Origin: a virus
Direction: 5' to 3' (one strand)
IMG/VR virus record: IMGVR_UViG_3300044825_001015
Location: 40,845-104,844 of that record
DNA length: 64,000 nt
In this document: positions 1,522 to 64,000 of the stretch, piece after piece
Layout: each line of letters opens with the position of its first letter
Numbering within the stretch: the stretch's first letter is position 1
Notes under the pieces: model-generated
Seen by the model: the letters and a program-made list of their open reading frames with translations, nothing else
Told to the model about the DNA's origin: nothing
Database searches by the model: none
Made by a program: the position numbers and the translations under genes

Positions 1522-1991
1522 CCTTCTCAACACCAAGCGTTATAAAACTTTCTGTAGTTGGAGGAAATGCTACAGAATTTGATAATTTAAATTCAGGCGG
1601 CGCCCTCACATTGTCTGATCATTCTAGATCCCCATTGTCCGTATCCTATGATGTTTTGAGCAAGTCTGACAGAATGGCAGATGGAACATTGAAGAGATAT
1701 GTTGTCGCTAGAAAGAAAATAATTCAATGTCAATGGTCTATGCTTCCAACAATCAGAAGCCAGGTTGCAGATGGAAATGCTGATGCAAGAGACATGAAAG
1801 AGTTTTATGAGTCTAATTTATATAGGCCCATGAGTATGACTTTATACTATAATAGAAATACTGCAGAGCGATCTGGCGGGGCGTATGCAGAAACACTATC
1901 AGTCTATTGGAACAATTTCACATTTGATGTAGTAAAAAGATATAAGAACTTTGACTACTGGAATGTAACAGCAGAATTTTTGGAGATATAA
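1518..1991 (+). CDS. Minor tail protein (distal-tail-like)
   Basis: Follows the TMP with an ATGA overlap; size and beta-rich composition fit. Confidence 0.65.
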   Translation: MTFSTPSVIKLSVVGGNATEFDNLNSGGALTLSDHSRSPLSVSYDVLSKSDRMADGTLKRYVVARKKIIQCQWSMLPTIRSQVADGNADARDMKEFYESNLYRPMSMTLYYNRNTAERSGGAYAETLSVYWNNFTFDVVKRYKNFDYWNVTAEFLEI

Positions 1992-4900
1992 TGCTAGGCA
2001 ATACTACAGTCAGAAACTCAATTAATGGGTCTGATGTTGTTGAAGCGAAGCCAAAAATTATTGCTGAATGGAATATGAATTCCATTGCAAGCCCATTTAT
2101 TCATGGTACTGAAACTCATCCAATATCTTTTACCCCGCTAACTCTTCAAAAGGGGGCGGCAGCGCCAAACATTACAAGTATTACTGAAACTTCAAACTTT
2201 GATAGAACTTTCTATAGTCCAGTTTTTAATGATAATACATCTCAATTAATTATTGCTTCTTCAAGTTCTACTTCTGCTCTAGTGTCTGGATATGCTATGG
2301 CTAATGGAACAGCATCTTTAATTTTAAAAAACAAGATACCAATTTCTAATGGCGATAGTATTCAAGTTTCTGGAGTAGGTCAACTTTTCGACGGCTCATA
2401 TGTAGTTGCATCACAACTAGGTGGAGTCCTTTTATCTTACGTTACAAATAATTCATCAAGTAATGTAAGCCTTACATCATCTCCAATACAAGGTAGAGTA
2501 TCTGCCAATATTTCAGAATATTATGTAGACTTTACAGTATCTACGTTTGCTAGCAGAGCAGCAAAAATATTTTTTAAATTGAAGTCTGACTATCAATTTC
2601 AATCACAAAGTTCTCAATTATTTTTAGAAGAATTTAATGTGACTCTTAGGGCGGTAGGTCTGAAAGATGGAGTCCCTGTATATACACAATCAATAACAAA
2701 GAATTACACAGTCAATTCAACTTCATGGACAGATGCATATATATCATTTGCAAATCCAGATAGCCAGGTAGATGTTGTTAGAGTTTATATCTCTATGGAA
2801 GTTTCAAATGATTATCGTGCCGCGTTGATAGTGGATCAGATATTTGGAGCGAACGTATCAGACTTTGAAGTGTATACAGAAGATAGAACCCCACTCTCAG
2901 AAGTTTTTGATGTTTATAGGCCAGGAGAAGTACTGCTAGATGCTGGGCCAAAAAATGTAGAAATAAACTCTACATTGACATATCCACAACAATGCACACC
3001 AACTCAGATGGCGCACAAGTATGCTATTGGTGATTTATATCAAAAGGTGCAGCGCAGCATAACCCCATTCGCTGGCAATCCATATAGTTACTATGTTTCT
3101 GCAACTGGGTGGGGTAGCAAAAGAATCTGGTGCATATACGATAAAGAAATTTCTGTAAATAAATTAGTAATAAAAGTCAATGCAATTGCAGCAAAGCCAG
3201 CGGTGGACTCTTTTGTAATAAAAATATTAGTAAATAAGCAATGGGAAACTATTCAAACAACTTCTATGGCATTTACTAATAATGGATTATTAACCCTCTA
3301 TTATAACGGTACTTCATGGAGTACAACACCATGGTCACTAGTTCCAACAATATCTGAAGCGACAGGACAAATAGATAAAAGAAGAATCATACAGGGCGTA
3401 GCGTTTGAATGCATTAATCAATCATACACTATAGAAAATAGTCCACTAAACAAGCCCGACGCTTTGCAAACATTAGAGTTGATAGAAATATCACCAAGAC
3501 TAGAACTTGATTTATCTAAGTTTGTTTCAGGACTTTCAGTAAATAAAGAGTTAGATAGTTCTGATATTCCGCTACCTCTAGGATCTATTACATCAAATAC
3601 TGCTACTATAGATTTTTCAAATATTCCAATAATTATCTCAAGTTCAGACATGAACACCGCAGAAGTTAATGATGTTGTTCCTATTAGCAATTATGCATCT
3701 ACATCTCCATTAAAAAATCTTTTAGTTAAGGGTGTCAAACTAAAAGGATCTTTTGACATTAATACTGGTGTAACATCTGGAACACAGAGTATTGTAAATG
3801 TACCATCCTTTATCATGTATGTAGAAAGATGGAAAGAGACAACAGACATTGTTTCTGCTGAATGCTATGATTCTGTTAAAAGATTACAAAATATAAAATC
3901 TAGACCTTTATATCTAAAAGATAAATCCATCAATGAAATAATATATAGCATACTTGACTCAGTAGGATTTGGAGACTACTACTTTGACGAACTAAGTAAA
4001 TTAAAGATAGTAAAGTATGAAAATGATCAATCTTCAATATCTGCTTCTACAACTTTAAATCAAAATATCGAATACTTCTGGGCAGTAGATGAAGATTCTA
4101 TTACAGATACCCTTAATGATTTATTAAAACCTTATCAAGTTTCCATATATACAGATGAGTATGGAGCATTAAGGTTCTTATCTCTGTATGAAATAAATAC
4201 AAAAGCAAATTCTGTTGCAGAATCAGATGTTTTATATATTCAAGATCTAAATCAAGTTCCACAGGGTGGAACTGTAAGAAGAAGCAATTTAATGTCCCTA
4301 GAGTTTGAAGAGATAGAAAGACCAGAGAAAGTAACTATTAAATATAAAAGACCTATGCCAAGCCTTTCTGACTATAGGCAGGCTAAAGACAGGCCGTATG
4401 CATCTATGACTGAGAGTGCCACAGATATTGTTTGGGAACCAGAGCAGCAGGCACAAGTACTCTCATTCTTTGAAATAGCAAGTCCAGGAATATTAACAGA
4501 AACACAGAATAGAATACCTTTCGACATTAATAGTGTTTCTAGAATAAATCGTGCGATAGAAAATTCTGGGTATTTATTGATTGATCAGGAAATAGTTAAG
4601 TATGATGGATTAGAGTATATATTTACATTTACTAATTCTACTGGAACATCTCAGTCAAGAACTGAAGTTATTAGAAATAGTGCAGATATAAATAGAGTTA
4701 TTTCAGAAATTTATCAATTAAATGAAGTTTCAAATATAACATGGAGTCCTTCAGGATACATGGTAAATGTAGAAAGAGGCTGCTTTGGCACAGAGCCAGC
4801 AAAGCATATTGTTTTATCTAATGGAAGTAGAAGCGGGTGGCTTGGTAGAGAATTCAATGCAGCATATAAACAAGTATCAAGTATAGATGAGGCAGACGGA

Positions 4901-52424: not shown

Positions 52425-52799
52425 TTGTCCACATAGGGCTATATACATGTGGATAAGTTGTGTATAACTTCATACAAATTGTGAATAAAGATATACAACT
52501 ATTAAATTAATTGTGTAGGTGTAATGGGCCAAGATACACCCCCCATCGTAATGTCAAGAAAAATGGGGCATTTTTATAATATATTTACCAAATATGACCC
52601 CATATTATTTAATTATGCCAAATTCTGTAAAATTCCATGAAAAAATTAGCCCCTTCGTAATATGCCCAAAGATATCCACAATCTGTGGATAAAATGTGGG
52701 CGGGATATGTAATGTGTATCCTATATTTATCATATATAGTATATGTAAAGGATTAGATCCAATTACCCCCCTGTGGATAACTTGTGGAAAATATCCACA
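52425..52799. promoter_or_regulatory. Cluster of DnaA boxes
   Basis: TTGTCCACA 52425; TGTGGATAA 52448, 52684, 52772; TGTGTATAA 52459; TGTGAATAA 52480; ATATCCACA 52672, 52791; TGTGGAAAA 52783. Confidence 0.75.
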
Positions 52800-52912
52800 A
52801 ATTTCCATGATTTTTTTATGTCCGTCGTAATGTCTAATTAATTTTTTATATCGGCGCTATCTCCGAAATTTCTAAAAATTTCCATGATTTTTTATAAGCC
52901 GTCGTAATATGC

Positions 52913-52960
52913 TTGACAAATTTTATTGTCGGTGCCGCCACCGAAATCGGTGGCTGTCAA
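52913..52960. repeat. 48-bp dyad element, copy 1
   Basis: TTGACA-N10-TCGGTG-N4-CACCGA-N10-TGTCAA. Confidence 0.85.
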
Positions 52961-52961
52961 G

Positions 52962-53210
52962 TCACAACATGAATGCAATCCAATTGTCAATCCAATCCTG
53001 CTGGGTCCAATTGTCAATATTGGCATATCGCTCTGGGGTGAACTGCTTGCGAATCTCCTCCGCCTCAGGGTACTTGGAAGGAATAGAGAATCCCCAAGGT
53101 GTGAAGTACCCATCCTCTGCGATAGCCTGCTTCACCTGGGCGGTGAAGTTGGGCTTATCAAACTCAAGGATACCCATGTCAATCGCTGCAACTGCTTCAT
53201 CAAATGTCAT
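52962..53210 (-). CDS. Hypothetical protein (leaderless)
   Basis: ATG 6 nt after the -10 of promoter 53217-53238. Confidence 0.6.
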   Translation of the reverse strand: MTFDEAVAAIDMGILEFDKPNFTAQVKQAIAEDGYFTPWGFSIPSKYPEAEEIRKQFTPERYANIDNWTQQDWIDNWIAFML

Positions 53211-53216
53211 ATCCAT

Positions 53217-53238
53217 ACTATACACCCGCCCTCTGACA
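53217..53238 (-). promoter_or_regulatory. PafBC/RecA-NDp-type promoter
   Basis: TGTCAG-AGGGCGGGTG-TATAGT. Confidence 0.75.
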
Positions 53239-53396
53239 TTAGTCAAGAAAAGTGGTCTGGCTGCTAGGAATTTCAAGGCTCCTGCTTTAGTTAACGACTA
53301 GGGCGTCCCCTGATAGCCGCACCAGACCTTCTACCTTACCTACTCCAATATTGTATCACTTCAACTTTTTGTACGTCAAGCCCTGGCTTGATGGGT

Positions 53397-53753
53397 CTAC
53401 TCAGCCCCTCGCTGAACGAACGACGGAGCATATCGGCTTGTATAGTCTTCGATAGTTCCTCGGGCAGTTGTACCACCAGCCGCAAATCCACGACCAGGGT
53501 TGTAGTCGGGTACTTCTTCATAGTCATTCACCACCTCATGCATGATACGAGAGGCCATCTCACCAATCACGGGATCGCCAATGCCATAGCGCCAGTCAAT
53601 CTCGTTGAGCATGAACCATCCAATCGCAACCTTGTGCAACATAGCCGCAGGATATCCACCAGCAGTCTTTACTAGATTAGCAAACTGATATGGATTATAG
53701 AGCCTGTTATTTGCTGCCTCCACAAATGCTTTCGCTGCCTTTTCCTCTATCAT
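53397..53753 (-). CDS. Hypothetical protein
   Basis: GAAAGGA SD. Confidence 0.6.
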   Translation of the reverse strand: MIEEKAAKAFVEAANNRLYNPYQFANLVKTAGGYPAAMLHKVAIGWFMLNEIDWRYGIGDPVIGEMASRIMHEVVNDYEEVPDYNPGRGFAAGGTTARGTIEDYTSRYAPSFVQRGAE

Positions 53754-53779
53754 GATATCCTTTCGATGGGGAGTCTACA

Positions 53780-54142
53780 TTATACACGAACGAGCGGGTC
53801 TTTGCTAGTGGCAATGGAAGAAGGAGCCTTTACTCCCCCCTCGCATGTGCAGTACATCATGTGGTAATGACAATCAAAACATGTAACAAACTCTATAACG
53901 TATCCCTCTTTACTACGACCCTTGAGTTTCTTAGGCTTGCGAACAGCAGTCATAGGTGGAACATGTGGACGGATAACAGCAGGCTCTACCTCAGGTAGAC
54001 CATCGTCACGCTTTCCTGTACGTCCTTCTAGTTTCCCGCCCTCTTCTTGATAATCCTTCAGAGCAGTCATCATCTCAGCAGTAAAGCGACCACGCTCTCC
54101 TACTGTGAATCCCAGACTACGCAGATACTCACGCTTGTCCAT
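53780..54142 (-). CDS. Lsr2-like DNA-binding-domain protein with C-terminal Cys cluster
   Basis: REYLRSLGFTVGERGRFTAE resembles the Lsr2 C-terminal domain with its RGR AT-hook. Confidence 0.7.
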   Translation of the reverse strand: MDKREYLRSLGFTVGERGRFTAEMMTALKDYQEEGGKLEGRTGKRDDGLPEVEPAVIRPHVPPMTAVRKPKKLKGRSKEGYVIEFVTCFDCHYHMMYCTCEGGVKAPSSIATSKDPLVRV

Positions 54143-56379
54143 TCCATACTCCGTTCTCTGTCATGATCTCTACTTGTACCTCTAGGTTGTATTCAGCCTG
54201 AGTATAGAATCTGAAAGCAACATCAACCATTCTAAGCAGGGCAGCATCATTCAACATAGCCGCCTCGTTCTCGTATGTCCTAAGATGGTCATGATCTTCT
54301 GAGTGTAGTTCCCACACATACCCGCCAGGACCACAGTCAATCTCTATAAACTTTAGCATTAGATATCCATCCTTAGTTGTCCATCGACCTGATTAGCCCA
54401 CTCCGCTTCCTCGCGCTCGTAGTCTGCCCACAACTCATCTGGCTCTGAGCAATCCCAGAAGAGCGCATCCCACAGACGCAACTCATCGCACATTGAGCGA
54501 CCTGTCACCACCGCACCGTTAGGCAACTCATACTTACGATCAAACACAGTCTCATCAGAAAACTCGTAGTCCCAGTTATCTTGCATGTCTGCCCAACCTA
54601 GGATGTATGGATCGGAGTCACGCTGTAACTCATCGAATATCTCCTGCACGCGCAACTGAATGTCATGCGGAATCGGCGGGTAGAAGTTAGCAGTAAGGTG
54701 CATGGTGATATCTGTCATTAGTCCTCCACAGGATCGACACTAACGGAATCTTGGATATAGCCGCCCTCAACAAGAATGGCGTCGGAATGATTATACTTGC
54801 CATTCCAGAAGTTCGCAAGAACATCGTCAAGCGTGTCTGCCTCTACGAACAAGTCCCACCAGTCCTCGGTTTGATAACTAATCTTATACTTAGGCATAAG
54901 GAACCTCCAATGGAAGAACGAACCAGTCACCATCACCATGATTAGATCCATAGTCAATGGCTTCATCCCTAGAAACGAACGGTCCATGAAGAGTATGACC
55001 ATCGAAAGCATTACCAAATGCAACTATGTATTTCACAGTTCCTCCCCATTCTCATCCTGATAGATAATTCCATAGGAATCACCAAAGTCCTCATACACCC
55101 AATCTTCGATATACGCCAGCACTTCCTCTAGGGTAGGCTCATATGGCTCGGCATTATCATCACCACGGCTGCCATAATCGTTCATAGCCTGCAATGATTC
55201 TACAATCTGGACAACATCATAGGTAACAGTCTTGATAGCGTTGATACGTTCAGGAAGAGACATTATTACCCACCATCCTACCCGACACCACTATCCCAGG
55301 AGCAGGCCAGGTATCGACAATGTATCCAAGAAGTCTAACTAGAGACTCATCAAGTGCTGCCGTGATAGGTGTATCATCATCTGGCGCTTCCCAGCGATCA
55401 GGTAGCCTATCGTCAGAAATAAAGATATTACCATCTGGGAAGTAGGCGGCGGTATCAGATTCTACCCCCCACCTCTGAGTATCTGTGTCATAGAATACAA
55501 CATAGTGCAACTGCATGATTACTCCTTATCCTGCGTAGGGCTGGGTCCAGTCCCAGGCATACTCCTGGAGAATCTCTTCTACCCTAGCAATAGCCTCGCT
55601 CTCATCATCAGCGTCAATGATGAAACTAACATTCTGAACGTCTACTGAAATATCCATCAGTCCTCCATGAAGTTGTAGTAGTAGCGAGTATAGCCAATCG
55701 GCTCGGAAGAGTCAAGAGGGTCAAGGGTGGGATGGGAAGAATACTGCAACGTCCCCTTCACTCCATCACTCTTACGCTTGACAATACACAGATCATAGAA
55801 GAATCCTAGAACCTCATACTGCTCTAGCATCTGATCTTTGGTAAGCATATTACTGGCTAGCATCAGTCCTCTGCCTCCTCATATGTCATGAGATACAAAC
55901 TCTGCTCTCTTACCACCCACACCAAACCCTCGCGGGTGTTGGTGTTGAGATATTCTAGTGCATCCTCATAGGTCCAGTCAATAGCATCCAGAATTTCATA
56001 GTGCCTATCATCATCTACCTCATCAGAGGATAGCCAATTCATATCAGCAATAAACTGATCCCACTCCAACTCAAATCCATAGTCGTGAGCCAATTCGATA
56101 ACTAGGCACATGAATTCTAGGTTTGATCTATGGCTACCGTCAATGTAGCAACCAGTCTCAGTCTTCATCTGGGATTACATCCTCCACGGTGGGAACAATA
56201 GAAATGTTGTTCATGATCTCGTTATACAACTCAGGATCACGACCACTAGCAAGGTCGTCAGCCAACTGCTCCAACTCCTCGCGGGTCATGTCATCATATG
56301 CCTCATACTCATACTCAAAATCCATGAAATGACCAGTTCCCTCATAGATGAGTTCTACTGAGAATGTGATAGTAGCCAT
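54129..56379 (-). CDS. Operon of small acidic hypothetical early proteins (54129-54359, 54359-54718, 54718-54897, 55033-55263, 55250-55516, 55657-55863, 55863-56168, 56158-56379)
   Basis: Overlapping stop/start codons and GGAG SDs. Confidence 0.55.
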
Positions 56380-56648
56380 TCTAACTCCAGTCGTCTGGGC
56401 GGAATCCGCCTGATGTAAGCCAATTATCCAATGCAAAGAAGGCATCTGTCAAGAAATCCATAGCCTCTTCTGCATCAACTTCCAAAGTTCCCCACTCCTC
56501 CCAACGTGCAAGCGCGACGCGGATAGAAGAAAGAGTTTCATTCGGGTCCATATTCTCTCCTTTCTAGGTATATCTAGTAAAGCCTATGCGAGAGTATATG
56601 TCAAGCAGGTTTTCTGTGATTTCCGTGATTTTTTCGTAACCGTCGTAA

Positions 56649-56696
56649 TTGACATTAGGTAGATTCGGTGCTGCCACCGATTTGCGGATTTGTCAA
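56649..56696. repeat. 48-bp dyad element, copy 2
   Basis: TTGACA-N10-TCGGTG-CTGC-CACCGA-N10-TGTCAA. Confidence 0.85.
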
Positions 56697-56697
56697 G

Positions 56698-56765
56698 CCC
56701 CACCCCAGAGAATCGAACTCTGCCCGACAGGTTTTGGAGGCCCGTCTGCGCCCAGCGCGGGTGGA
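56698..56765 (-). tRNA. trnW: Atypical 68-nt tRNA-Trp (CCA) with a minimal D arm
   Basis: TCCACCC/GGGTGGG, D arm GCGC-TGG-GCGC, loop CT-CCA-AA, T arm CAGAG-TTCGATT-CTCTG, discriminator G. Confidence 0.7.
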
Positions 56766-56768
56766 TCG

Positions 56769-56870
56769 GAGCAGTTTATCCATTGTCCAATCTAGGATTC
56801 CCTCATGCTCAGGAGGTTTTCGGCCCCATGCCTGCCGATGGCAGGGCAGTTTTACATCATGCCCAGGATG
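56769..56870 (-). ncRNA. Two tandem H-type pseudoknot motifs (56844-56870 and 56769-56816)
   Basis: CATC-CTGGGCAT-GATG-TAAAAC-TGCCC and CCTC-CTGAGCAT-GAGG-..-TAAAC-TGCTC. Confidence 0.7.
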
Positions 56871-56875
56871 TTTGA

Positions 56876-57880
56876 TTACGCGAAGGCGATTTCCTTGACC
56901 GCCTTCAGGATGCGACCCTTCTCCGCATTGGTGACAGGATCGAAACCGCTAGCGGCTGCTGCAACATTCTCAGCACCCCGCTCACCACGGCCCTTGCGGA
57001 ACCAGTCCAGACGCTCCGTGAGAGCATTGAACGCACCCCACGCGGTGCCTGCGATCATGTTAGTGGTGTCGGAAGAGTAAATCTCCTCCAGCAGATCGAC
57101 CTTAGTCTCCCACTTCTTGACAGCACCCTTGGCATCCTTGTCGGGACGCGGGTAGACAGCCTCAACAATGGCATCAAACTTAGCCTTGGTAATCTCCTTG
57201 GCAATAAGAGCCTGAGCCTCCTTATCGAAGGTGTCAAGGTACTGATTGGCGAGAGAAAGAGCCTCGCGTGCAGCCTGAACCTTACCACCCACGGTCTGCG
57301 TGTGGCGAATCTTGAAGGACTGCTTCACACCCTGAAGAGCCATGTTCAGAGTGTTCTGGCACACCACGCGAACGGGAGTGATGGAAGCCTGCACAGCAGT
57401 AGAACCATCATGCGAGGTGTGGACGAGAAGGTAGGACTTCACAACATCCGACACACCATTGGGGTCAAGGACAGTCTCACGCTCCAGCGCAAGCGAACCG
57501 AACACGACACGACCCTGGCGAATAGAGCCAGCAGTCTCCCAACGACCACCGTCAAGGAGGGCGTCACCAAAGTTGAAAAGATCCTCGTTCTGAAGAACGT
57601 GGTAGCGCTCACCAACGGTAGCAAGAACGTCAGTACCCTGGTCGAATGGGTTGTCACGAAGGACCATGTAGGAAGGCGTGATCACATTGTACGCCTTGGG
57701 GTAAGGAACGGCCTCCAGGCGAACGTTCCAGTTGGACAGGTAAGCCGCATCCAGCATCTCCTGGGTGGACTTCTCCTCAAAGAACACGGTCCCAAGACCA
57801 TGCCAAGCGGGTTCGCGGAAAGAAGCAAAAGACTGCTTCTCGCCATCCCGACTAACCTCTACTGCGTGTGGCATATTCAT
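56876..57880 (-). CDS. DUF932 (phage/plasmid TIGR03299-like) protein
   Basis: PAWHGLG, WETAG, SHDGS, TPVRVVCQNT, RHT, GTAWGAFNALTE. Confidence 0.9.
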   Translation of the reverse strand: MNMPHAVEVSRDGEKQSFASFREPAWHGLGTVFFEEKSTQEMLDAAYLSNWNVRLEAVPYPKAYNVITPSYMVLRDNPFDQGTDVLATVGERYHVLQNEDLFNFGDALLDGGRWETAGSIRQGRVVFGSLALERETVLDPNGVSDVVKSYLLVHTSHDGSTAVQASITPVRVVCQNTLNMALQGVKQSFKIRHTQTVGGKVQAAREALSLANQYLDTFDKEAQALIAKEITKAKFDAIVEAVYPRPDKDAKGAVKKWETKVDLLEEIYSSDTTNMIAGTAWGAFNALTERLDWFRKGRGERGAENVAAAASGFDPVTNAEKGRILKAVKEIAFA

Positions 57881-57908
57881 CTCCTTAGTTGATCGAACTT
57901 ATGGAACT

Positions 57909-57930
57909 ACTATACACCTGGGGACTGACA
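57909..57930 (-). promoter_or_regulatory. PafBC/RecA-NDp-type promoter
   Basis: TGTCAG-TCCCCAGGTG-TATAGT. Confidence 0.75.
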
Positions 57931-57980
57931 CTCGCAAGACTTTTTCTAAAAAATCCGTGAAAAATATTCTCTCGTCGTAA

Positions 57981-58013
57981 TTGACTTTACTAGGATTTCG
58001 GGGCAGGCACCGA
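57981..58013. repeat. Dyad element, copy 3 (partial)
   Basis: TTGACT-N11-TCGGGG-CAGG-CACCGA. Confidence 0.7.
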
Positions 58014-58018
58014 AAATA

Positions 58019-58046
58019 TGAGCAGTTTTTCGTCATGCTCAGGACG
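58019..58046 (-). ncRNA. H-type pseudoknot motif
   Basis: CGTC-CTGAGCAT-GACG-AAAAAC-TGCTCA. Confidence 0.7.
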
Positions 58047-58147
58047 CCATTAATGGTTGCAATGCTGGGGAATATAGGCGCTATTGGAAGTCCATGAGTC
58101 CCTAGGTTGACTTTCTCTTCCCTCACCCTATGTTGCCATACTCTGCG

Positions 58148-58220
58148 TACCCCCAACGGGATTCGAACCCGTGCTACCGCCTTGAAAGGGCGGCGTCCTT
58201 GGCCTCTAGACGATGGGGGC
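58148..58220 (-). tRNA. trnE: tRNA-Glu (UUC)
   Basis: GCCCCCA/TGGGGGT, CCGCC-CTTTCAA-GGCGG. Confidence 0.92.
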
Positions 58221-58228
58221 TATCTGGT

Positions 58229-58654
58229 CTAACTCTCAGACCAGTCAATCTCCATGCGATCCTCTGAGAAGTCTGCCTCTACATCAGCAGAGTAGTAGTG
58301 CGACTCAAGGCTAGCACTCAGATCATTCTCAAGATTATCCATGTCGTAGTTCAGAGGAACACTAACGGTCCCGCTGAATGTGACGGTCACAGTAACATCG
58401 TAGTCCTTGCTGATGCTAAGACCAAAGATATCGACAAGGCTCTGAGAAATCTCCTCGTCAATGTAGTCATACTGCTCCTTGACGTACTGCTCAAGGTTGT
58501 CGATCATCATCTGACGATCATGTGCCCTGGCCTGCCAGAAATCACGATCAGCAGTCATACTAGCAAGGGCGTTGTTCAGTTGATCAATCTTAGTCTCCAA
58601 CTCCTGCATGGTGGGCGGGAATGGATGAATGTCAGTCATGCTAGGGTCAATCAT
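58229..58654 (-). CDS. Hypothetical coiled-coil/acidic protein
   Basis: GGAGG SD; host-like codon usage. Confidence 0.65.
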   Translation of the reverse strand: MIDPSMTDIHPFPPTMQELETKIDQLNNALASMTADRDFWQARAHDRQMMIDNLEQYVKEQYDYIDEEISQSLVDIFGLSISKDYDVTVTVTFSGTVSVPLNYDMDNLENDLSASLESHYYSADVEADFSEDRMEIDWSES

Positions 58655-58655
58655 G

Positions 58656-59045
58656 TTACACCTCCATCAATGTCTTAGCGTACTTATTGATGAACTCGTT
58701 CAGGGAGAACGTGACAATGATATCAGTCAGCACTCCTGACTTCCAATCATAGTCATACAGAGTTACGGTCTTAAATGCAAAGTCAAAGACAGGAACCTTA
58801 TGCTCGTTGTCTGCAAGGTAGTTCACAGTAACACCCCAGCCAAGATCACCCTGCCATGCATCACCAACCAACTGCGAGATGATAATACGATTTGCATAAG
58901 CCTGATCGTCAATGCGTCCAGCATCCTGCACATGGTCAAGAGCATTAGCAAACCTAGCAAGCATACCCTCGCCAGCCCAATGTCCGTAGATGAAGATGGT
59001 GTTGCCATCGACCTGTCGAAGTCCGAAATTAGCGCGGTCGCCCAT
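58656..59045 (-). CDS. Hypothetical protein (MGDRANFG...)
   Basis: GAAAGG SD before ATG 59045; promoter at 59075-59096. Confidence 0.65.
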   Translation of the reverse strand: MGDRANFGLRQVDGNTIFIYGHWAGEGMLARFANALDHVQDAGRIDDQAYANRIIISQLVGDAWQGDLGWGVTVNYLADNEHKVPVFDFAFKTVTLYDYDWKSGVLTDIIVTFSLNEFINKYAKTLMEV

Positions 59046-59074
59046 GGTAGTGCCTTTCTGTAGTAGGTAGGGAA

Positions 59075-59096
59075 ACTCTATCATGTAGGTCTGACA
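59075..59096 (-). promoter_or_regulatory. PafBC/RecA-NDp-type promoter that also has a TTGACA -35
   Basis: TTGACAAC-TGTCAG-ACCTACATGA-TAGAGT. Confidence 0.75.
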
Positions 59097-59105
59097 GTTG
59101 TCAAG

Positions 59106-59188
59106 TGCCCCAAGCGGGAGTCGAACCCGCACTCCGTTATGGAACTTGATTTTGAGTCAAGCGTGTCTGCCAATTCCACCATCGGGGC
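59106..59188 (-). tRNA. trnL: tRNA-Leu (CAA)
   Basis: GCCCCGA/TTGGGGC, CTTGA-CTCAAAA-TCAAG, long variable arm. Confidence 0.9.
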
Positions 59189-59191
59189 GTG

Positions 59192-59222
59192 TGGGCAGTT
59201 TTAGCGAACATGCCCAGGTTCG
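59192..59222 (-). ncRNA. H-type pseudoknot motif directly 5' of tRNA-Leu
   Basis: CGAAC-CTGGGCAT-GTTCG-CTAAAAC-TGCCCA. Confidence 0.7.
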
Positions 59223-59232
59223 TCCCAACTAA

Positions 59233-59608
59233 TCAGCGACCAGCGGGGATGCCATGCTTCAGAGTCTCCAACGCGGGGGTGGAGTCAATGAACTTGCCAT
59301 TCTGACGAGTGACAATACGAGTCTGGACACCATAACGGGTGTTCCAAGTCTCAAGGTAGGTGAACTTAGGGGTCTTGCTCTTCTTGCTTGCCATGTTTTC
59401 TCCTTTACTAGTAAACGGGTAGTGCATCAACTACGGCAACAATCTTACCATTTGCCGCTCTTGCAATCAAGTCTGCGCGGGACTGATTATGAATCGTGAT
59501 ATCAAAATGCGTATCATCATAGATATCAAATTCCACGCCATGCTTGATTGCTTCAAATACCCCCGCGCCCGTGGATGAGCGGGAGGGAGTACGGATAGTA
59601 GCAATCAT
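59233..59608 (-). CDS. Two small hypothetical genes (59233-59394, 59408-59608)
   Basis: SDs present; downstream of promoter 59635-59656. Confidence 0.55.
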
Positions 59609-59634
59609 GTTACCCTCTTTTCTGTTGTAGTACT

Positions 59635-59656
59635 ACTATAGCCTAGGGGTCAGACA
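59635..59656 (-). promoter_or_regulatory. PafBC/RecA-NDp-type promoter (variant)
   Basis: TGTCTG-ACCCCTAGGC-TATAGT. Confidence 0.7.
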
Positions 59657-59707
59657 CTCACAAGAAAAAATTTCTATGATTTCTGTGATTTTTCTTAAAA
59701 CTCGTAA

Positions 59708-59756
59708 TTGACATATGTGAGAATCGGTGCTGGCACCGCCCTGACAGATTTGTCAA
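59708..59756. repeat. Dyad element, copy 4
   Basis: TTGACA-N10-TCGGTG-CTGG-CACCGC-N11-TGTCAA. Confidence 0.85.
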
Positions 59757-59901
59757 GGAGATACGCTCTAGTATTCCTGACTTTCTACTTGGTCAAGGAT
59801 ATCGCAGTATAGCGAACCTAGAATGTATCCTTCATTCATCAAGTCCCGCAGGCACATGAGTACCTGATCCCAATCAGCACGCGGCATCTCTACCTTTACC
59901 A

Positions 59902-60132
59902 CTACACACCCGCCAATCTCTTACGCTCTACACCCGTCATGCCACCATAGACATGAGGCTCGAAATCCTCGTTGCGAATCGCAAATGCGAGGCAATCCTG
60001 CACAACGCTGCACGTTGCACAAATCGACTTAGCCTTTTCGATGCGCGAGGCAACACCTGAGAGAAACAGGTTGCTATCCGCATCCTTGCACGCTGCCCTA
60101 TCCTGCCACATTCTGATCCTTCTTCCACTCAC
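59902..60132 (-). CDS. whiB: WhiB-family transcription factor (early region)
   Basis: WQDRAAC..F..AKSICATCSV..C..HVYGGMTGVER. Confidence 0.88.
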   Translation of the reverse strand: MSGRRIRMWQDRAACKDADSNLFLSGVASRIEKAKSICATCSVVQDCLAFAIRNEDFEPHVYGGMTGVERKRLAGV

Positions 60133-60521
60133 GCGCTTCCTTGCGCTTGATTAGTCTAGTCTGCATCTTTCGCGGTGCTGACGGGCAGCAGCCGTAGTAG
60201 CAATTCATCCGATGCTTGCCGACATTACGGCGGGATCGAATCAAAAAGGCACCTCCTCATAGCGCACCCCATCGACAATCAGAGTGCCGTCATCCAGATA
60301 CATGCACCGCGCATAGTCGAATGCATGGTCGCCCAGCATGTAGTAGTTATCCAGCCAAGCCTTCTCAAACTCCACCGTGGTCATCATGCTACCACCTCCA
60401 CAATCTCAACAGTCTGACGGGGCGATGCCCAAAAGTCTCGGATAGTCTCAGCACCCTCGCGGGTGGCGACCGTGGAAAAGAACTGCCCATCTACGAATAC
60501 CTTGTATGTTGTCATGGCTTC

Positions 60522-60848
60522 ACCTTATCAGAGGGGTCTGACACCCAAGGGTTGGGGTCAAGGTCAAGGGTGGCCTCCAAGCGGAGGAAGTTCTCATACA
60601 GTTCTTCTAGGTTCATGCGTATACCTTATCATCTAGGTCTGACAGGCAATCACAGTCATATGAAACCTTGAGGTAGTCCTCAAAGGCTTCCACGGTCATG
60701 ATGCCCTTGTATTCATGGCACAGTCCGCACCACTTGGCATCCAGGGAAATCTCGTTATCGCAAAAGCAGCAAACGAGGTGGGAATGGAGAGTGTTGTTCA
60801 TTTCTAGCCTTTCTTTCTATGCCCTAAGGCTATCATGAGGGACTGACA
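60522..60848 (-). promoter_or_regulatory. Three tandem PafBC/RecA-NDp-type promoters (60522-60543, 60623-60644, 60827-60848)
   Basis: TGTCAG-N10-TAAGGT twice, TGTCAG-N10-TAGCCT once; each heads a tiny ORF. Confidence 0.72.
60613..60801 (-). CDS. Small Zn-finger protein
   Basis: CCFC..CGLC; GAAAGG SD. Confidence 0.55.
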   Translation of the reverse strand: MNNTLHSHLVCCFCDNEISLDAKWCGLCHEYKGIMTVEAFEDYLKVSYDCDCLSDLDDKVYA

Positions 60849-60914
60849 TTCACCGAATCCAAAATATATACAAATCGGACAACATTTCTGTGATGTATTT
60901 CACTTCGTCGTAAC

Positions 60915-60963
60915 TTGACAAATTCAAATTTCGGTGGCGGCCCCGAATTTCACTTGTTGTCAA
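60915..60963. repeat. Dyad element, copy 5
   Basis: TTGACA-N10-TCGGTG-GCGG-CCCCGA-N11-TGTCAA. Confidence 0.85.
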
Positions 60964-61144
60964 GTACCTTGTATATGACATAGATCACGGCGACTACGGG
61001 AAGTACGAGGCATGACATTCCCAGCACTAACATAGCGGTACTAAAAATGTCAAGCGCCTGCGAGTCTACAATATTATGCTCTGCCATTTCACACCCCCAC
61101 AAAGTCGCGCAGCATCTCCCGAAAGTTCTCTAGCGTGATATCGT

Positions 61145-61690
61145 TCATGCTGCACCCCCTCGCACGATAATCCAGATGAGAGCCTGCGCGGTGCGCGGTG
61201 TGATATCAAACTCCGCAGCGACAGTAGTGACAGCCTCAGAAAGTTCGCGGTATTGCGTCTTATTGGGCGAGTCAGTATCCATGCCAGCGGCTCGCATCAT
61301 CCATACGTCAATGACAACCGCGTCAGTATCGCCAGCGATAGCGCGAGCGAAAGCGTTAGTCTTTAGTCCGTTCAACGCATCAAATCCCGCGACCATGGAA
61401 GCCTGAGCCATGCGGAGATTATTGCCCAAGCCCTTAGGGGTCTGACCAAGCGAGAACGCGATAGCCTTAGCGACGTTAGTGGACCAACGCTCACGCGGCG
61501 AGAATGCTGCGACGATGGATGCGCCTACCTCTAGGGTAGTGTCAAGGTTACGGGCGACTTCCTCTGCAACCTCCTCCGCATCACGGTACCAGACGGATGC
61601 TTGCTCCATCTGCGCGAGGGTGGCGGTCATGATAATGGAACGGAAGGTGTCAGTAGCGGTAGGGGCGAGAGTATCTGTCATCGTTGTCAT
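61145..61690 (-). CDS. Helix-hairpin-helix DNA-glycosylase-like protein (leaderless)
   Basis: WY..AAFSPR..W..N; GLKT.AF; VVIDVWM; AQALIW. Confidence 0.6.
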   Translation of the reverse strand: MTTMTDTLAPTATDTFRSIIMTATLAQMEQASVWYRDAEEVAEEVARNLDTTLEVGASIVAAFSPRERWSTNVAKAIAFSLGQTPKGLGNNLRMAQASMVAGFDALNGLKTNAFARAIAGDTDAVVIDVWMMRAAGMDTDSPNKTQYRELSEAVTTVAAEFDITPRTAQALIWIIVRGGAA

Positions 61691-61696
61691 GGAATG

Positions 61697-61907
61697 ATCC
61701 TAGCACTAGGGTCCGACATTGGGAAGGGGTAATTAGTCATTTTCGGTAACGAAACGGTTACGATGCTTAGGCTTGCGAGAATACTTAGCCTTATTCCGAT
61801 GGGGCGCGGCAATATTAGAGCGGCGCAACTCCAAGGTACGCTGAATCTCATCACGGGTACGCTTACGATTCTTGATCATGGGAAAATACTAGCACACCCC
61901 TCCGACA
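61697..61907 (-). promoter_or_regulatory. Two PafBC/RecA-NDp-type promoters (61697-61718, 61886-61907)
   Basis: TGTCGG-N10-TAGGAT and TGTCGG-N10-TAGTAT; an ATG lies 6 nt downstream of each. Confidence 0.78.
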
Positions 61908-61947
61908 ATGGGAAGAAATCTCAGGAAAAATATTTTCGTGTCGTAAC

Positions 61948-61995
61948 TTGACAAACTTGGATATCGGTGGCGGCACCGAATTTAGGATTTGTCAA
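61948..61995. repeat. Dyad element, copy 6
   Basis: TTGACA-N10-TCGGTG-GCGG-CACCGA-N10-TGTCAA. Confidence 0.85.
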
Positions 61996-62350
61996 GTCTA
62001 TTTCTAATAGAGTTAGCAAGAATCTCTAGCGAGTATTCTATATCCTCTAGAATTTCAAAGTCTGCTGGATTCTCTGCAGATGCCCACATGCGCTTGCAAC
62101 GTGTGAGCAATTCTTGAATGTCATTCCATTGCATTGTGAGATTTATATCGAATGGACGACGCTCTATCACCTTGACGTTACTCACCGATCCACCTCGCAA
62201 CTGCCGCGCAGAAATCTTCAAACGTTGTCTCCTTATCGAATCCAAACGTGAAGCAGTCTACCTCGTTGTTTCCATTGTCATAGACATTGACAGTATGCGA
62301 ACCGTTCCATACATACGTCCATCCTGAGCGGGAGTCATGAAGTTCTAGCA

Positions 62351-62623
62351 TTACTCCACCGCCCGAAAGTTCTCCATGAACTGTGCAAAGTAGATCAGCG
62401 GAACGTACGGGTACACCTCATGCGAGTAGAGTGCGGCAAACTCTGGCAGAGGCTCAGTAACCCACTCATCATTCTTGAAGAATGCCAGTTCGACAGAATG
62501 CGGGAAGCGTGCGTATGCTCCATCTCCGATTGCAATGGATACCTCATCGGCCATGGGGTGAGCGATCTTGGCCCTGGCGTTGATGTAGTGCCTATCACCA
62601 TATGTTTCAGCGCGGGTAATCAT
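62351..62623 (-). CDS. Hypothetical protein
   Basis: SVELA..VYPYVP; SD present. Confidence 0.55.
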   Translation of the reverse strand: MITRAETYGDRHYINARAKIAHPMADEVSIAIGDGAYARFPHSVELAFFKNDEWVTEPLPEFAALYSHEVYPYVPLIYFAQFMENFRAVE

Positions 62624-62748
62624 TAGAAGCCTTCCTCTATTCCACCAACGATTGCCATAGCAGTAAGGATACCGCTAATAATGACGAATGACAAGACATG
62701 CTGTGCGAATGTTCTCATGATTCCTCCCTCTCGCATGTGCATGATCCA

Positions 62749-62770
62749 AAGTTACCACGGGCGTCTGACA
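62749..62770 (-). promoter_or_regulatory. PafBC/RecA-NDp-type promoter
   Basis: TGTCAG-ACGCCCGTGG-TAACTT; ATG 6 nt downstream. Confidence 0.7.
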
Positions 62771-62806
62771 GTAGAAGCCTGCCACACTTAGCGCATGTGC
62801 GGAACA

Positions 62807-63088
62807 CTAGAATTCCAATCCCATCGAAGCCAGTCCTGTGATCAGTTGGGCCTGGATCACAGGGTCATTCTTGTCCTCAGGCTTGAGCCACTTTACCATG
62901 GCAGACCCACGGGACTGCATGGTATTACCCTGCGTGTCGGTTACGAGGAACCAGTCATCCTCTAGCGGTTCGATGATGAACCACCGAGTATGGAGCATCC
63001 CCTTAGCGTTCTCTCCAAGGATACCCTCCACAAATGGTGGGCACTCTCGCATGGGAGTGGTGACGATACGATCTACTGATTCGATCAT
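62807..63088 (-). CDS. Hypothetical protein
   Basis: GAAAGG SD before MIESVD. Confidence 0.5.
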   Translation of the reverse strand: MIESVDRIVTTPMRECPPFVEGILGENAKGMLHTRWFIIEPLEDDWFLVTDTQGNTMQSRGSAMVKWLKPEDKNDPVIQAQLITGLASMGLEF

Positions 63089-63214
63089 GGCCTGACCGCC
63101 TTTCCATTGACGAGGACCCATTCCCCGCAGCCATAGCAAATCCAACGAGGGGCGGCGGTACCAAGACGGATGCTGCCCTTGCAGTTCTCACACGGTGTCT
63201 TTCTCATGTCTCCG

Positions 63215-63236
63215 ACTCTACACTAGGGGGCCGACA
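63215..63236 (-). promoter_or_regulatory. PafBC/RecA-NDp-type promoter
   Basis: TGTCGG-CCCCCTAGTG-TAGAGT; ATG 7 nt downstream. Confidence 0.75.
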
Positions 63237-63313
63237 ATAGTCAAATCCAAAATGCATACAAATCGGACATTTTCAAAGTTTTTTTTCTGGGAAAAAATCC
63301 AAGGTTTCGTAAC

Positions 63314-63345
63314 TTGACATTTTATGATTTCGGTGGCGGCACCGA
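63314..63345. repeat. Dyad element, copy 7 (partial)
   Basis: TTGACA-N10-TCGGTG-GCGG-CACCGA. Confidence 0.8.
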
Positions 63346-63423: not shown

Positions 63424-63439
63424 TCGAACTGTTGTTCGA
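63424..63439. promoter_or_regulatory. LexA (SOS/Cheo) box
   Basis: TCGAAC-TGTT-GTTCGA, a perfect match to the actinobacterial TCGAAC-N4-GTTCGA. Confidence 0.7.
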
Positions 63440-63449
63440 ACCCTGCCGC

Positions 63450-63468
63450 TTAGGTTAGGCTGACCTAA
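63450..63468. promoter_or_regulatory. IdeR/DtxR iron box
   Basis: TTAGGTTAGGCTGACCTAA versus consensus TTAGGTTAGGCTAACCTAA (18/19). Confidence 0.7.
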
Positions 63469-64000
63469 GCGCACGCGCCAGACGGATTAGGTCACGGTAG
63501 TATTCTACTCGCGCCGCATCCTGTCGGGATACCGCGTCCTGCCCGATACGGGCGACCAATGCGCGGCGTTCACGTTGCGCCATAGTCTGACGCGGCGGGA
63601 TGCCACGGTAGGGATAGGCGTTCACCTACGCCCCCTAGCACTCTTAGCGTACTCCAAGACTCTCATCTCAGAGCCACAGTCGCAGATAGCGCGACCAGCG
63701 CGAGACCCACGACCATTCACGCGGTCCCAGACCACGTTGGTTACGACATGACCAACGCGCATGAACGCGCCGTCCCTAGTGGTACACGCCCCATCGAAGG
63801 ACGAGACTGCATACCAATTTCTCTTGCTATTCATGCGGACACCTCCTGCAGCACGCGACGCTTGGACTCTACGGCGAAGCGACCTGTGAGGCTACGGTTC
63901 GCGTAGCGAAGGTAGGTCATGGCCTCGCCATGGGTAATCCAACGAGTGACGGGCACACGCCCATAGATCGAAGCGTGATCCAAGCGGACTACGCGGTATC

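Follow-up and report, generated by a model that had tools for sequence, protein, structure and literature searches.

Promoter-early stem-loop cassettes (PeSLs) are repeated elements of T4-type phages (Arbiol et al. 2010, PMC2839356; Comeau et al. 2014, PMC4122927). Their stem-loops, which are rich in G and C tracts, terminate in vivo and are reported to do so well without T-runs (PMC2839356). The stoperators of cluster A mycobacteriophages (L5 gp71 and relatives) are 13-bp asymmetric sites that are bound by a monomer and combine an invariant TCAAG end with genome-specific positions 2-8. They number 20-35 per genome, occur genome-wide in one orientation relative to transcription, and have the published consensus sequences GGTGGMTGTCAAG, GGGGATTGTCAAG and GTTACGWDTCAAG (PMC3029335, PMC5559632, PMC6550527, PMC9283540). 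Their invariant part is TGTCAAG, and the stoperators overlap -35 elements (PMC3029335, PMC5559632).

The window (the whole stretch of 64,000 nucleotides that was analyzed) comes from an uncultured freshwater phage of actinobacteria whose genome is complete at 105 kb (CheckV: 100%). Phages of this family are apparently lytic, abundant in freshwater and siphovirus-like. A sequence-only reading of the window had described seven 48-bp dyads that divide the early region into gene cassettes; this region is a GC-rich, minus-strand, leftward arm that holds small host-takeover gene units. Pattern counts gave 7 strand-wise matches to TTGACA-N8-12-TCGGTG-N2-6-CACCGA (0.00 expected), and TCGGTG-N4-CACCGA with up to two mismatches was found 8 times against 0.57 expected (core positions 52851, 52929, 56665, 57998, 59724, 60931, 61964 and 63330). 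The repeats are therefore real and non-random, but only five are complete dyads with both arms (48-50 bp); the other two are half-dyads. The degenerate core that had also been described at 52851 was recovered by the same core search. All copies lie within 10.5 kb of this one arm, and a search of the other 93 kb of the genome found zero additional copies. The features of the arm are as follows.

63314-63345, minus strand: half-dyad d63314, a perfect core and promoter-side arm only; a TTACGACGG / TTTCATGGAAT stretch occupies the place of the distal arm.
61948-61995, minus strand: complete dyad d61948, which of all copies is the best palindrome (RNA fold z = -6.8); ORF 61982-62245, which lies upstream, runs through its distal arm.
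60915-60963, minus strand: complete dyad d60915, with a distal spacer of 11 nt.
59902-60132, minus strand: WhiB-family gene inside the dyad arm (PF02467, E 1.2e-16).
59708-59757, minus strand: complete dyad d59708, core GCGGTG..CACCGA, the first base of which resembles the L010-type core.
57981-58013, minus strand: half-dyad d57981, upstream of a DUF932 gene, a one-mismatch core and the promoter-side arm AGTCAA only; the distal arm is missing, as it also is from the orthologous module in relatives.
56649-56696, minus strand: complete dyad d56649; tRNA-Trp (56697-56765) has its 3' end 1 nt before the start of the distal arm.
56575-56648, minus strand: rest of module d56649, with two TTACGA boxes, ATCACGGAAA and a sigma-70-like promoter; a 56-aa gene (start 56551) follows.
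63215-63313, 61885-61947, 60825-60914, 59630-59707 and 57905-57980, minus strand: equivalent module parts of the other dyads.
52913-52960, minus strand: complete dyad d52913 (pattern match), the last element of the leftward arm, beginning 2 nt past the stop of ORF 52962-53276, with no gene downstream.
52851-52866, minus strand: degenerate core TCGGCGCTATCTCCGA in a second module copy that has no arms; TTACGACG and ATCATGGAAAT come next, and then a DnaA-box cluster.

Matches of the arm ORFs were limited to WhiB, an Lsr2-like N-terminus and a weak HTH_19; the WhiB-family gene supports an actinobacterial host as context. In gene direction, each module consists of the dyad, a TTACGA box, an A/T-rich stretch and a PafBC/sigma-A-type promoter, and the box, the stretch and a promoter-like site follow every dyad except the last (d52913). 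The module promoters have the PafBC/RecA-NDp form TGTCRG-N8-TAnnnT and are kept in relatives. The placement proposed earlier, at the 3' end of one unit and before the next promoter, holds when the arm is read from right to left, because its genes are on the minus strand, but fails for the dyad at 52913, which has no following gene. The gap between the dyad and the end of the upstream gene or tRNA was 0-10 nt in four of six cases. The next promoter's TGTC element lies 70, 83, 83, ~84, 98 or 109 nt away, and this distance, neither fixed nor helically phased, argues against a classical activator site. As dividers of the region into cassettes the dyads do mark some unit boundaries, but six promoters of the arm have no dyad.

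Within the dyad, pairwise identity among the seven copies was 0.88 for the promoter-side arm and 0.72 for the core, against 0.29-0.35 (about random) for the spacers, which are 10-11 nt long and non-complementary, as had been noted. Conserved arms and core around near-random spacers point to selection on specific positions and not to a contiguous converted tract. All seven copies use TCGGTG/CACCGA, and three cores have one mismatch each, all uncompensated, so the stems within this genome are not drifting by compensatory change. The inward-facing -35-like hexamers indeed have no -10: none was found at 16-18 nt, and a promoter scan gave one weak match only.

The same module occurs in the same places in about 15 related metagenomic phages. 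We surveyed 72 distinct modules from 80 related loci and found CTTGACA upstream of the conserved arm in 22 of the 72 (background density 0.26 per kb), at an arm-to-arm distance of 42-44 bp in 20 of these 22. The outer CTTGACA arms and this spacing, equal to four helical turns, are thus conserved among relatives, and the spacing is held although core length varies; the distal arm, or lower stem, is missing in ~70% of family modules. Each genome has one uniform type of GC-rich core, and this type changes from genome to genome, even at 90-100% protein identity. Orthologous modules keep their flanks and arms and have their own genome's type of core: after tRNA-Trp the core is TCGGTGGCAGCACCGA in the studied genome, TCGGGGCAGCCCGA in L017, GGCGGCGTGCGAC in L013 and ACGGGCCGGGAT in L014, and the own-genome type is likewise seen upstream of DUF932 in relatives. 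Comparison of d61948 with its counterpart in L034, a phage whose proteins are mostly 85-100% identical to those of the studied phage, showed that the core alone is replaced (GCGCGG-N12-CCGCGC in L034). In distant relatives, intergenic modules have TGTGA-N6-TCACA boxes, which are classical transcription-factor sites, 50-90 nt upstream of the same TGTCAG promoter type; L086 has 12 of these boxes against 0.26 expected. Most lie beside a GC-rich element and not in its stead, so their many copies mark multi-copy factor boxes as a habit of the family, not necessarily at the place of the core.

From this anatomy and its conservation we propose, tentatively and with a probability of roughly 0.4, that the dyad is a boundary element, a candidate composite protein site on duplex DNA that may serve as a roadblock, a distal operator or both. 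In this family of freshwater actinobacterial phages the dyads would be the palindromic form of a common element. Its -35-like arms (CTTGACAA / TTGTCAAG), one or two per element, would be invariant and lie at a spacing of 42-44 bp, so on one face of the helix, around a centred 14-16 bp GC-rich core with a sequence specific to each phage lineage. A fast-evolving factor would occupy the element, which lies immediately past one unit's end and precedes the next host-type promoter by 70-110 bp. There it could act as an insulator that stops or gates read-through from the unit upstream, as a stoperator roadblock does, and/or as a distal operator on the next promoter. Among the three readings offered from the sequence alone (recombination sites, polymerase decoys or roadblocks, and operators of a master regulator), the last fits best.

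The -35-like arms could also recruit the polymerase itself. According to this explanation, the inward hexamers bind holoenzyme through sigma-A region 4, perhaps with the phage WhiB or PafBC, and the GC-rich centre cannot be opened, so that parked polymerases block read-through or raise local RNAP for the next promoter. The arms do match the -35 consensus with the extension CTTGACAA, the GC core takes the place of the missing -10, a WhiB protein is encoded in the arm, and the promoters have the PafBC/RecA-NDp form. The TGTCAAG word is also invariant in the cluster A stoperators, which overlap -35 elements (PMC3029335, PMC5559632). However, any GC block would serve such a trap, which leaves unexplained why each genome has one core sequence and close relatives have another. 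Moreover, two facing holoenzymes cannot both sit on sites 42 bp apart, and many modules are single-armed. We regard the trap as improbable.

We then analyzed the dyads as RNA. The terminator scan scored one of the seven dyads in the window, 3/6 in L017 and 0/7 in L022; the single terminator-like copy in the window, d60915, scores on both strands, and a T-tract is absent in the other six. GC stems of 6-8 bp are possible in six of the seven cores of this genome, but in 4/7 copies the fold is no more stable than that of shuffled sequences (z between -0.5 and -2.1). In the predicted fold of d61948, d60915 and d52913 the arms pair as a lower stem, the spacers make a symmetric internal loop with 7-10 nt per side, and the core makes an upper stem-loop. 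Family-wide, 27 out of 51 modules fold at -8 kcal/mol or better, and a hairpin with a T-rich tail occurs in two of the 51. On these counts the dyads do not fit a canonical intrinsic terminator, in which a T-rich tract begins within 0-2 nt of a GC-rich hairpin (hairpin plus T-tract 1/7 in the window, 2/51 in the family). Most cores of this genome, L017, L010 and L022 are able to form GC hairpins. Cores incapable of a stable hairpin are those of the L011/L014/L016/L018/L012/L015/L066 lineage (GCCCGGCCC), L013 and L033; the L013 core is asymmetric and occurs in both orientations. In L015 and L016 a canonical hairpin with a T-run lies upstream of the core, which makes the core an additional element there.

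These results bear on a reading of the modules as PeSL-type cassettes without a dedicated factor. The core would then be a stem-loop attenuator or terminator of the upstream unit fused to the next promoter, the arms would merely lengthen the hairpin, and recombination and gene conversion among modules would keep the cores uniform. Its observed basis is that an upstream gene or tRNA ends right at the dyad, that the last copy has no downstream gene, that most cores can form a GC stem, with a fold at z = -6.8 in d61948, and that half of the L017 modules have a hairpin and T-run. PeSL stem-loops are reported to terminate well without T-runs (PMC2839356), so the hairpin-capable versions may act as attenuators. 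In addition, modules recombine with one another in relatives, and short-tract gene conversion could yield uniformity within a genome. Several features speak against this reading: the rarity of hairpins with a T-rich tail, a whole lineage with non-folding cores and separate canonical terminators upstream, spacers beside the core that are not homogenised as conversion tracts would do, and the lack of compensatory stem diversity within the genome. The arm spacing, fixed at 42-44 bp despite changes in core length, would likewise have no rationale in an RNA hairpin. On balance this reading is unlikely, though we weigh it seriously. The preference for a protein site on duplex DNA over an RNA hairpin, already voiced from the sequence, gains support from a core that is genome-specific and not always palindromic, from the fixed arm spacing and from the TGTGA-N6-TCACA boxes of distant relatives.

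The T7 early RNase III sites offer a comparison for RNA processing: they are coaxial duplexes of about 20 bp with a small internal loop, and are cleaved in vivo. An RNase III-like enzyme could cut the folded dyad and so separate and stabilise unit mRNAs and tRNAs. The predicted fold has a fitting shape in three of seven copies, and one dyad comes right after a tRNA without encoded CCA. The internal loops are nevertheless large, more than half of the copies fold no better than shuffles, the lower stem is missing in two copies and in most family modules, and the L011-type lineage has non-folding cores. Processing is thus quite improbable as the function of the dyads.

Relatives have lost and reordered cassettes, with joints inside modules. 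In their contigs, modules are joined to each other at 60881->63283 and 63285/63291->61938, in the promoter-side half and 25-60 bp off the dyad centre, and in L017 the d60915 and d61948 cassettes are in swapped order (edges 60965 and 61955). Recombination sites of the serine-recombinase type had been suggested for this region. The geometry of the dyads, roughly 48-bp sites with inner and outer half-sites ~5 and 21 bp off centre, recalls large serine recombinase attP sites. Cassettes moved through a serine-integrase-like att site, or by a GC-cluster or MITE-like element that spreads itself, would account for the changed cassette order and the module-to-module joints. The suggestion was not supported: 9 of 46 boundary edges in relatives fall at dyads against 17.5% expected (p = 0.41), so breaks favour dyads no more than they favour other gene boundaries. 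Neither the Resolvase (PF00239) nor the Phage_integrase (PF00589) Pfam model detected a serine or tyrosine recombinase in the complete genome, while both match in control genomes. The joints do not fall at the dyad centre, and module positions are orthologous across genomes and not newly inserted. The dyads therefore do not fit a recombinase att site, and we consider any such mobile element highly improbable. Judged from the joints in these contigs, ordinary homologous recombination between modules does occur and shuffles cassettes in relatives; being repeated, the modules would be passive substrates for recombination that deletes or reorders cassettes.

Returning to the boundary element, the factor that would occupy it is probably encoded by the phage itself, since even near-identical phages differ in their cores. 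Profile searches of the complete genome found no Sigma70_r4, ParB_N or HTH_3 domain, and the L5 gp71 repressor and its PHROG family (phrog_357) gave no match there at E <= 10 and E <= 1, respectively. These domain and repressor searches of the complete genome thus gave no candidate dyad-binding protein, and no protein cluster tracks core type among the loci compared. The element might be occupied by a two-part nucleoprotein boundary complex in which a conserved component reads the arms, four turns apart, and a fast-evolving one reads the core, an idea we think rather doubtful. If true, each lineage would have a private specificity that gates its whole takeover-gene arm. Such a code would resemble immunity or kin discrimination, would be coupled to promoters that imitate the host's PafBC DNA-damage response, and would parallel stoperator/repressor co-evolution, yet with unrelated parts.

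These phages are common in lake metagenomes, and the DUF932 gene that neighbours the dyads is present in hundreds of IMG/VR contigs. Most of their hosts are uncultured, which leaves sequence as the only source from which to read their regulation. Invariant arms around a core rewritten in each lineage would be a compact natural example of regulator/site co-evolution, and core type should predict the specificity residues of the regulator, which gives a handle for finding it. The modules also mark unit boundaries and recombination-prone joints, which helps annotation and explains the mosaicism of the arm. Should the dyad be merely a stem-loop attenuator, the PeSL principle would extend from T4-type coliphages to actinobacterial siphovirus-like phages.

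The dyads share features with several known systems. Like intrinsic terminators, they are GC-rich and come straight after genes and tRNAs; unlike them, they have no T-tract in 6/7 copies, use the same stem in every copy and have lost the hairpin in a whole lineage. Dispersed operators of a global plasmid or phage regulator, such as the KorB OB sites of RK2, have an arrangement that the dyads resemble: a few copies of one palindrome lie upstream of several promoters in the same replicon, at distances that vary. To our knowledge OB sites have no extra outer arms and no core turnover, and the phage has no ParB-family protein. As with PeSLs, the modules recur as cassettes between the small, early-type genes of a hyperplastic block. 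Each joins the stop of the upstream gene and an A/T-rich stretch to a host-type promoter and to a dyad rich in G/C, and the modules recombine to delete, insert and reorder gene units in relatives. They differ from PeSLs in a GC element that lies 70-110 nt upstream of the promoter and not within or adjoining its -35/-10, that stands between invariant -35-like arms with a constant spacing of four turns, and that is lineage-specific, uniform per genome and in some lineages no stem-loop; their promoters are of the actinobacterial PafBC/RecA-NDp form. Compared with stoperators, the variable part is palindromic and 10-11 bp away from TGTCAAG, and the 7 nt just upstream of that word are not conserved. 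All seven sites are symmetric dyads or half-dyads of a single arm, and the phage lacks both an integrase and any homologue of the repressor (phrog_357, L5 gp71). In common with stoperators, they are present many times in the short gaps between genes of an actinobacterial phage, join an invariant TGTCAAG to a variable part that is uniform per genome and differs between related phages, and have a proposed role in blocking elongation between units.

The repeated element of 48-50 bp that we refer to as the dyad is built around the core TCGGTG-N4-CACCGA, which occurs eight times in the window at no more than two mismatches, against 0.57 occurrences expected, and is absent from the rest of the genome. 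The sequence-only reading had described seven 48-bp dyads; the repeats are confirmed by these counts, but only five copies are complete (CTTGACA-N10/11-core-N10/11-TGTCAAG), and the two copies at 57981 and 63314 consist of the core and the promoter-side arm (TGTCAAG) only. Read along the genes, each dyad lies behind a stop codon or a tRNA (in four of the six cases at a distance of 0-10 nt), and is followed by a TTACGA(CG) box, an A/T-rich stretch that frequently contains ATCAYRGAAA, a TTGnnn-TGTCRGnC-N8-TAnnnT promoter and the next gene; this arrangement is called the module below. The promoter pattern, checked by eye in the window and in relatives, is of the PafBC/RecA-NDp type. The proposed position at the end of a unit and upstream of the next promoter was therefore retained in this reading direction, except that the last dyad (52913) only closes the gene arm, beside a cluster of DnaA boxes, and that six more promoters of the same type in the arm have no dyad. 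When a -10 element was sought for either arm of the dyad taken as a -35, only the copy at 61948 gave a weak match (TTGTCA-16-TATTTT) and the other copies gave none. A restriction-site or methylase-target reading of the cores was rejected because no site is common to all copies. The half-site TCGGTG is identical to the final six bases of the published PafBC box TGTCGGTG, which was considered a coincidence as the cores of relatives do not contain it.

The virus record from which the window comes is 104,844 bp long (completeness 100%, CheckV), and the window makes up its right 64 kb. The ends of the record overlap exactly over 127 bp (genome 1-127 = window 63874-64000). The assembly is thus circular or terminally redundant, and the leftward gene arm runs on across the junction to ThyX. 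The bulk of the genome has about 37% GC and plus-strand genes, including those for Pol III alpha, DnaB, RecA, an amidase and fibre-like proteins, and the gene arm, from window 52.9 kb over the junction to genome ~2.6 kb, has about 50% GC and small minus-strand genes.

Features of the gene arm
Genome 1534-2235, minus strand: ThyX
Gene arm, minus strand: WhiB-family protein
Gene arm, minus strand: DUF7178, DUF932 and a protein with an Lsr2-like N-terminus
Gene arm: three tRNAs

Several arm genes look leaderless, as they start 7-10 nt past a -10 element without a Shine-Dalgarno sequence (window 61879, 61690 and 63207, minus strand); others, such as the DUF932 gene, have a strong AAGGAG. The gene content of the arm and these starts point to a putative actinobacterial host, and from gene size and host-type promoters we infer the label 'early region'. 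The runs containing the sequence are freshwater DNA metagenomes, and a megablast search of deposited phages with the arm gave no match. Other elements were observed in this part of the window. DnaA-box words (TTATCCACA/TGTGGATAA), some in inverted pairs, are clustered at 52430-52810, where the plus- and minus-strand arms meet and the GC content switches. A LexA-box form, TTCGAAC-N4-GTTCGAAC, adjoins a TTAGGTTAGGCTGACCTAA palindrome at 63424-63468, where a small ORF ends upstream of the dyad at 63314. An element distinct from the dyad, CCTGAGCAT...AAACTGCT (57900-58147), is found at the 3' ends of units or ahead of tRNAs and is conserved upstream of DUF932 in many loci. The first gene past the dyad at 56649 (56381-56551, minus strand) encodes a protein of 56 aa with a match to PHROG 865, annotated as HNH endonuclease (E 2.4e-14), which is too short for a complete nuclease.

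Relatives were found via the neighbouring DUF932 protein, which led to 596 related stretches in IMG/VR, and 80 loci, many on 95-115 kb contigs, were kept. None of the 80 loci contains the core of the window. An exact scan of IMG/VR for the dyad pattern gave nine contigs with one match each and no more cores; these were not counted as relatives because 18 fixed bases would give as many matches by chance. About 15 of the 80 loci are similar to the arm at the nucleotide level and have the same module in the same places, upstream of DUF932, after tRNA-Trp and before the DUF7178 unit, with the promoter-side arm and TTACGA kept in every one. Of 72 distinct modules, 22 also have the distal arm CTTGACA, which stands 42-44 bp from the other arm in 20 of these 22. 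This distance of four helical turns is kept despite a core of 14 nt (L017, L010) instead of 16 nt (window), as longer spacers (11-12 nt instead of 10) make up the difference. Each genome has a single type of core, and the type varies from genome to genome.

Core types in the window and in related IMG/VR loci
Window: TCGGTG-N4-CACCGA
L017 and L019: TCGGG-N4-CCCGA
L010: GCGGG-N4-CCCGC
L013: GCGGCGYGCGAC, asymmetric, in both orientations
L011, L014, L016, L018, L012, L015 and L066: GCCCGGCCC
L022: GCCCGGGCACG-TTY-CGTGCCC
L034: GCGCGG-N12-CCGCGC
L033: GGGYCGRC

Orthologous modules of different genomes have their flanks and arms in common, but each has the core type of the genome it belongs to. Many proteins of L034 and L010 are 90-100% identical to those of the window, so turnover of the core is much faster than that of the surrounding genes.

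The main rival explanation is that the dyad is a plain stem-loop attenuator. Some versions of the core are indeed capable of forming a hairpin: in relatives, where the 36 nt between the arms were folded for 51 distinct modules, 27 reach a folding energy of -8 kcal/mol or better and 18 have a z of -2 or lower. However, a hairpin of -8 kcal/mol or better with a T-rich tail was found in only two of these modules, the cores of the GCCCGGCCC lineage fold at only 0 to -5 kcal/mol, and a consensus terminator scan of the seven dyads of the window detected a hairpin with a T-run at a single one, there on both strands. RNA folds of 66-nt segments around the seven dyads gave z values of -0.5 to -6.8 (four of seven between -0.5 and -2.1), and the bases flanking the stem (5' T, 3' A) extend the palindrome and supply no U-tract. 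In two loci of the GCCCGGCCC lineage (L015, L016) the core is closely preceded by a canonical terminator that is separate from it. As judged from these predictions the dyads are not ordinary terminators. We regard the attenuator as the less likely reading, but the hairpin-capable versions may have such a role.

Within this genome the arm and core blocks are conserved, and identity in the intervening 10-nt spacers is at the random level. Tracts of gene conversion should have made the spacers alike as well, and selection for pairing alone would permit different stems in different copies; neither pattern is observed. The simplest reading would be that a factor recognises a specific sequence in duplex DNA and that its specificity varies with the lineage. 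The earlier preference for a protein site on duplex DNA over an RNA hairpin is in agreement with the random-level spacers, the genome-specific cores and the non-folding lineage. The dyad is thus most likely, with a tentative probability of about 0.42, a factor-binding insulator or operator, on which the arm geometry would place a complex spanning four helical turns. The putative factor is more likely to be encoded by the phage than by the host. No candidate binder was found among the ~35 arm ORFs with Pfam and PHROGs, nor in the whole genome with PF04545, PF02195, PF01381, L5 gp71 and phrog_357, and ORF clustering of 14 related loci, a weak test as it covers ~20 kb per genome, gave no protein family tracking the core type. 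Two cysteine-rich proteins of the arm have no family match.

Window 63085-63207, minus strand: 40-aa CxxC...CxxC (Cys4) zinc-ribbon-like protein, first gene past the dyad at 63314
Window 60613-60801, minus strand: 62-aa small Cys-rich protein, first gene past the dyad at 60915

Three small ORFs specific to this genome (63085-63207, 63622-63834 and 63455-63625) were dropped as binder candidates because they are absent from L017 and L019, whose core is nearly the same.

The dyads had also been proposed as recombination sites, with breaks of gene gain and loss expected at them. Relatives do provide clear cases. In L017/L019 the cassettes of the dyads at 60915 and 61948 are in opposite order (homology edges 60965 and 61955), a 44-aa ORF is missing in L010 and in a contig of metagenome run X4 (edges 59766 and 59923), and in a contig of run X19 position 60881 is joined to 63283, which removes 2.4 kb and fuses the promoter-side half of the module at 60915 to the dyad-side half of that at 63314. 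Contigs of runs X9 and X19 also have 63285/63291 joined back to 61938. The crossovers in the X9 and X19 contigs fall in the TTACGA / ATCAYRGAAA part of the modules and not at the dyad centre. Amongst 98 distinct break edges, taken as HSP ends in 13 relatives, which makes the test rough as these are a crude proxy for break points, nine lie within 12 bp of a dyad, compared with 4.5% of the length (p = 0.03). Measured against non-coding and gene-boundary space there is no excess over other boundaries (9/46 at dyads, 17.5% expected, p = 0.41); breaks occur in one relative or another at nearly all gene boundaries of the arm, which is mosaic throughout. Since Resolvase and Phage_integrase Pfam models matched nothing in the complete genome, site-specific recombination is unsupported. 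Homologous recombination between repeated modules is enough for the events, and has been described between the repeated cassettes of PeSLs, the promoter-early stem-loop cassettes of T4-type phages (PMC2839356).

Distant relatives (L086, L036, L038, L057, L069 and others) contain TGTGA-N6-TCACA boxes at 5-12 per 20-kb locus, with 12 in L086 (2039-16144) against 0.26 expected. These boxes, which have the CRP/GlxR consensus, belong to intergenic modules and precede TGTCAG promoters by 50-90 nt; they support a view of the boundary modules as probable carriers of multi-copy factor sites. A GC-rich element of the CYCGRG type is often found beside the box, so the GC element may be an old module component in its own right. 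DnaA boxes occur upstream of the DUF932 promoter in L039 and L051, and within or beside boundary modules in L022, L039 and L051.

In all, the feature is real, and the modules are boundary cassettes of a known regulatory sort in a new form. By analogy, the whole module would work like a PeSL, and the sequence logic of the dyad is similar to that of stoperators, the repressor sites of cluster A mycobacteriophages, which block elongation between genes (PMC9283540) and whose consensus sequences have an invariant TGTCAAG end beside a part varying with immune specificity (PMC3029335, PMC5559632). In contrast to stoperators, the variable part here is palindromic and 10-11 bp from TGTCAAG, the copies lie within one arm only, and this genome has neither a homologue of L5 gp71 or its PHROG family nor an integrase. 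On those three counts the dyads fall outside the stoperator class. TGTCAAG, common to dyads and stoperators, is the complement of the -35 consensus, and its presence in both may reflect convergence on a sigma-A-related word.
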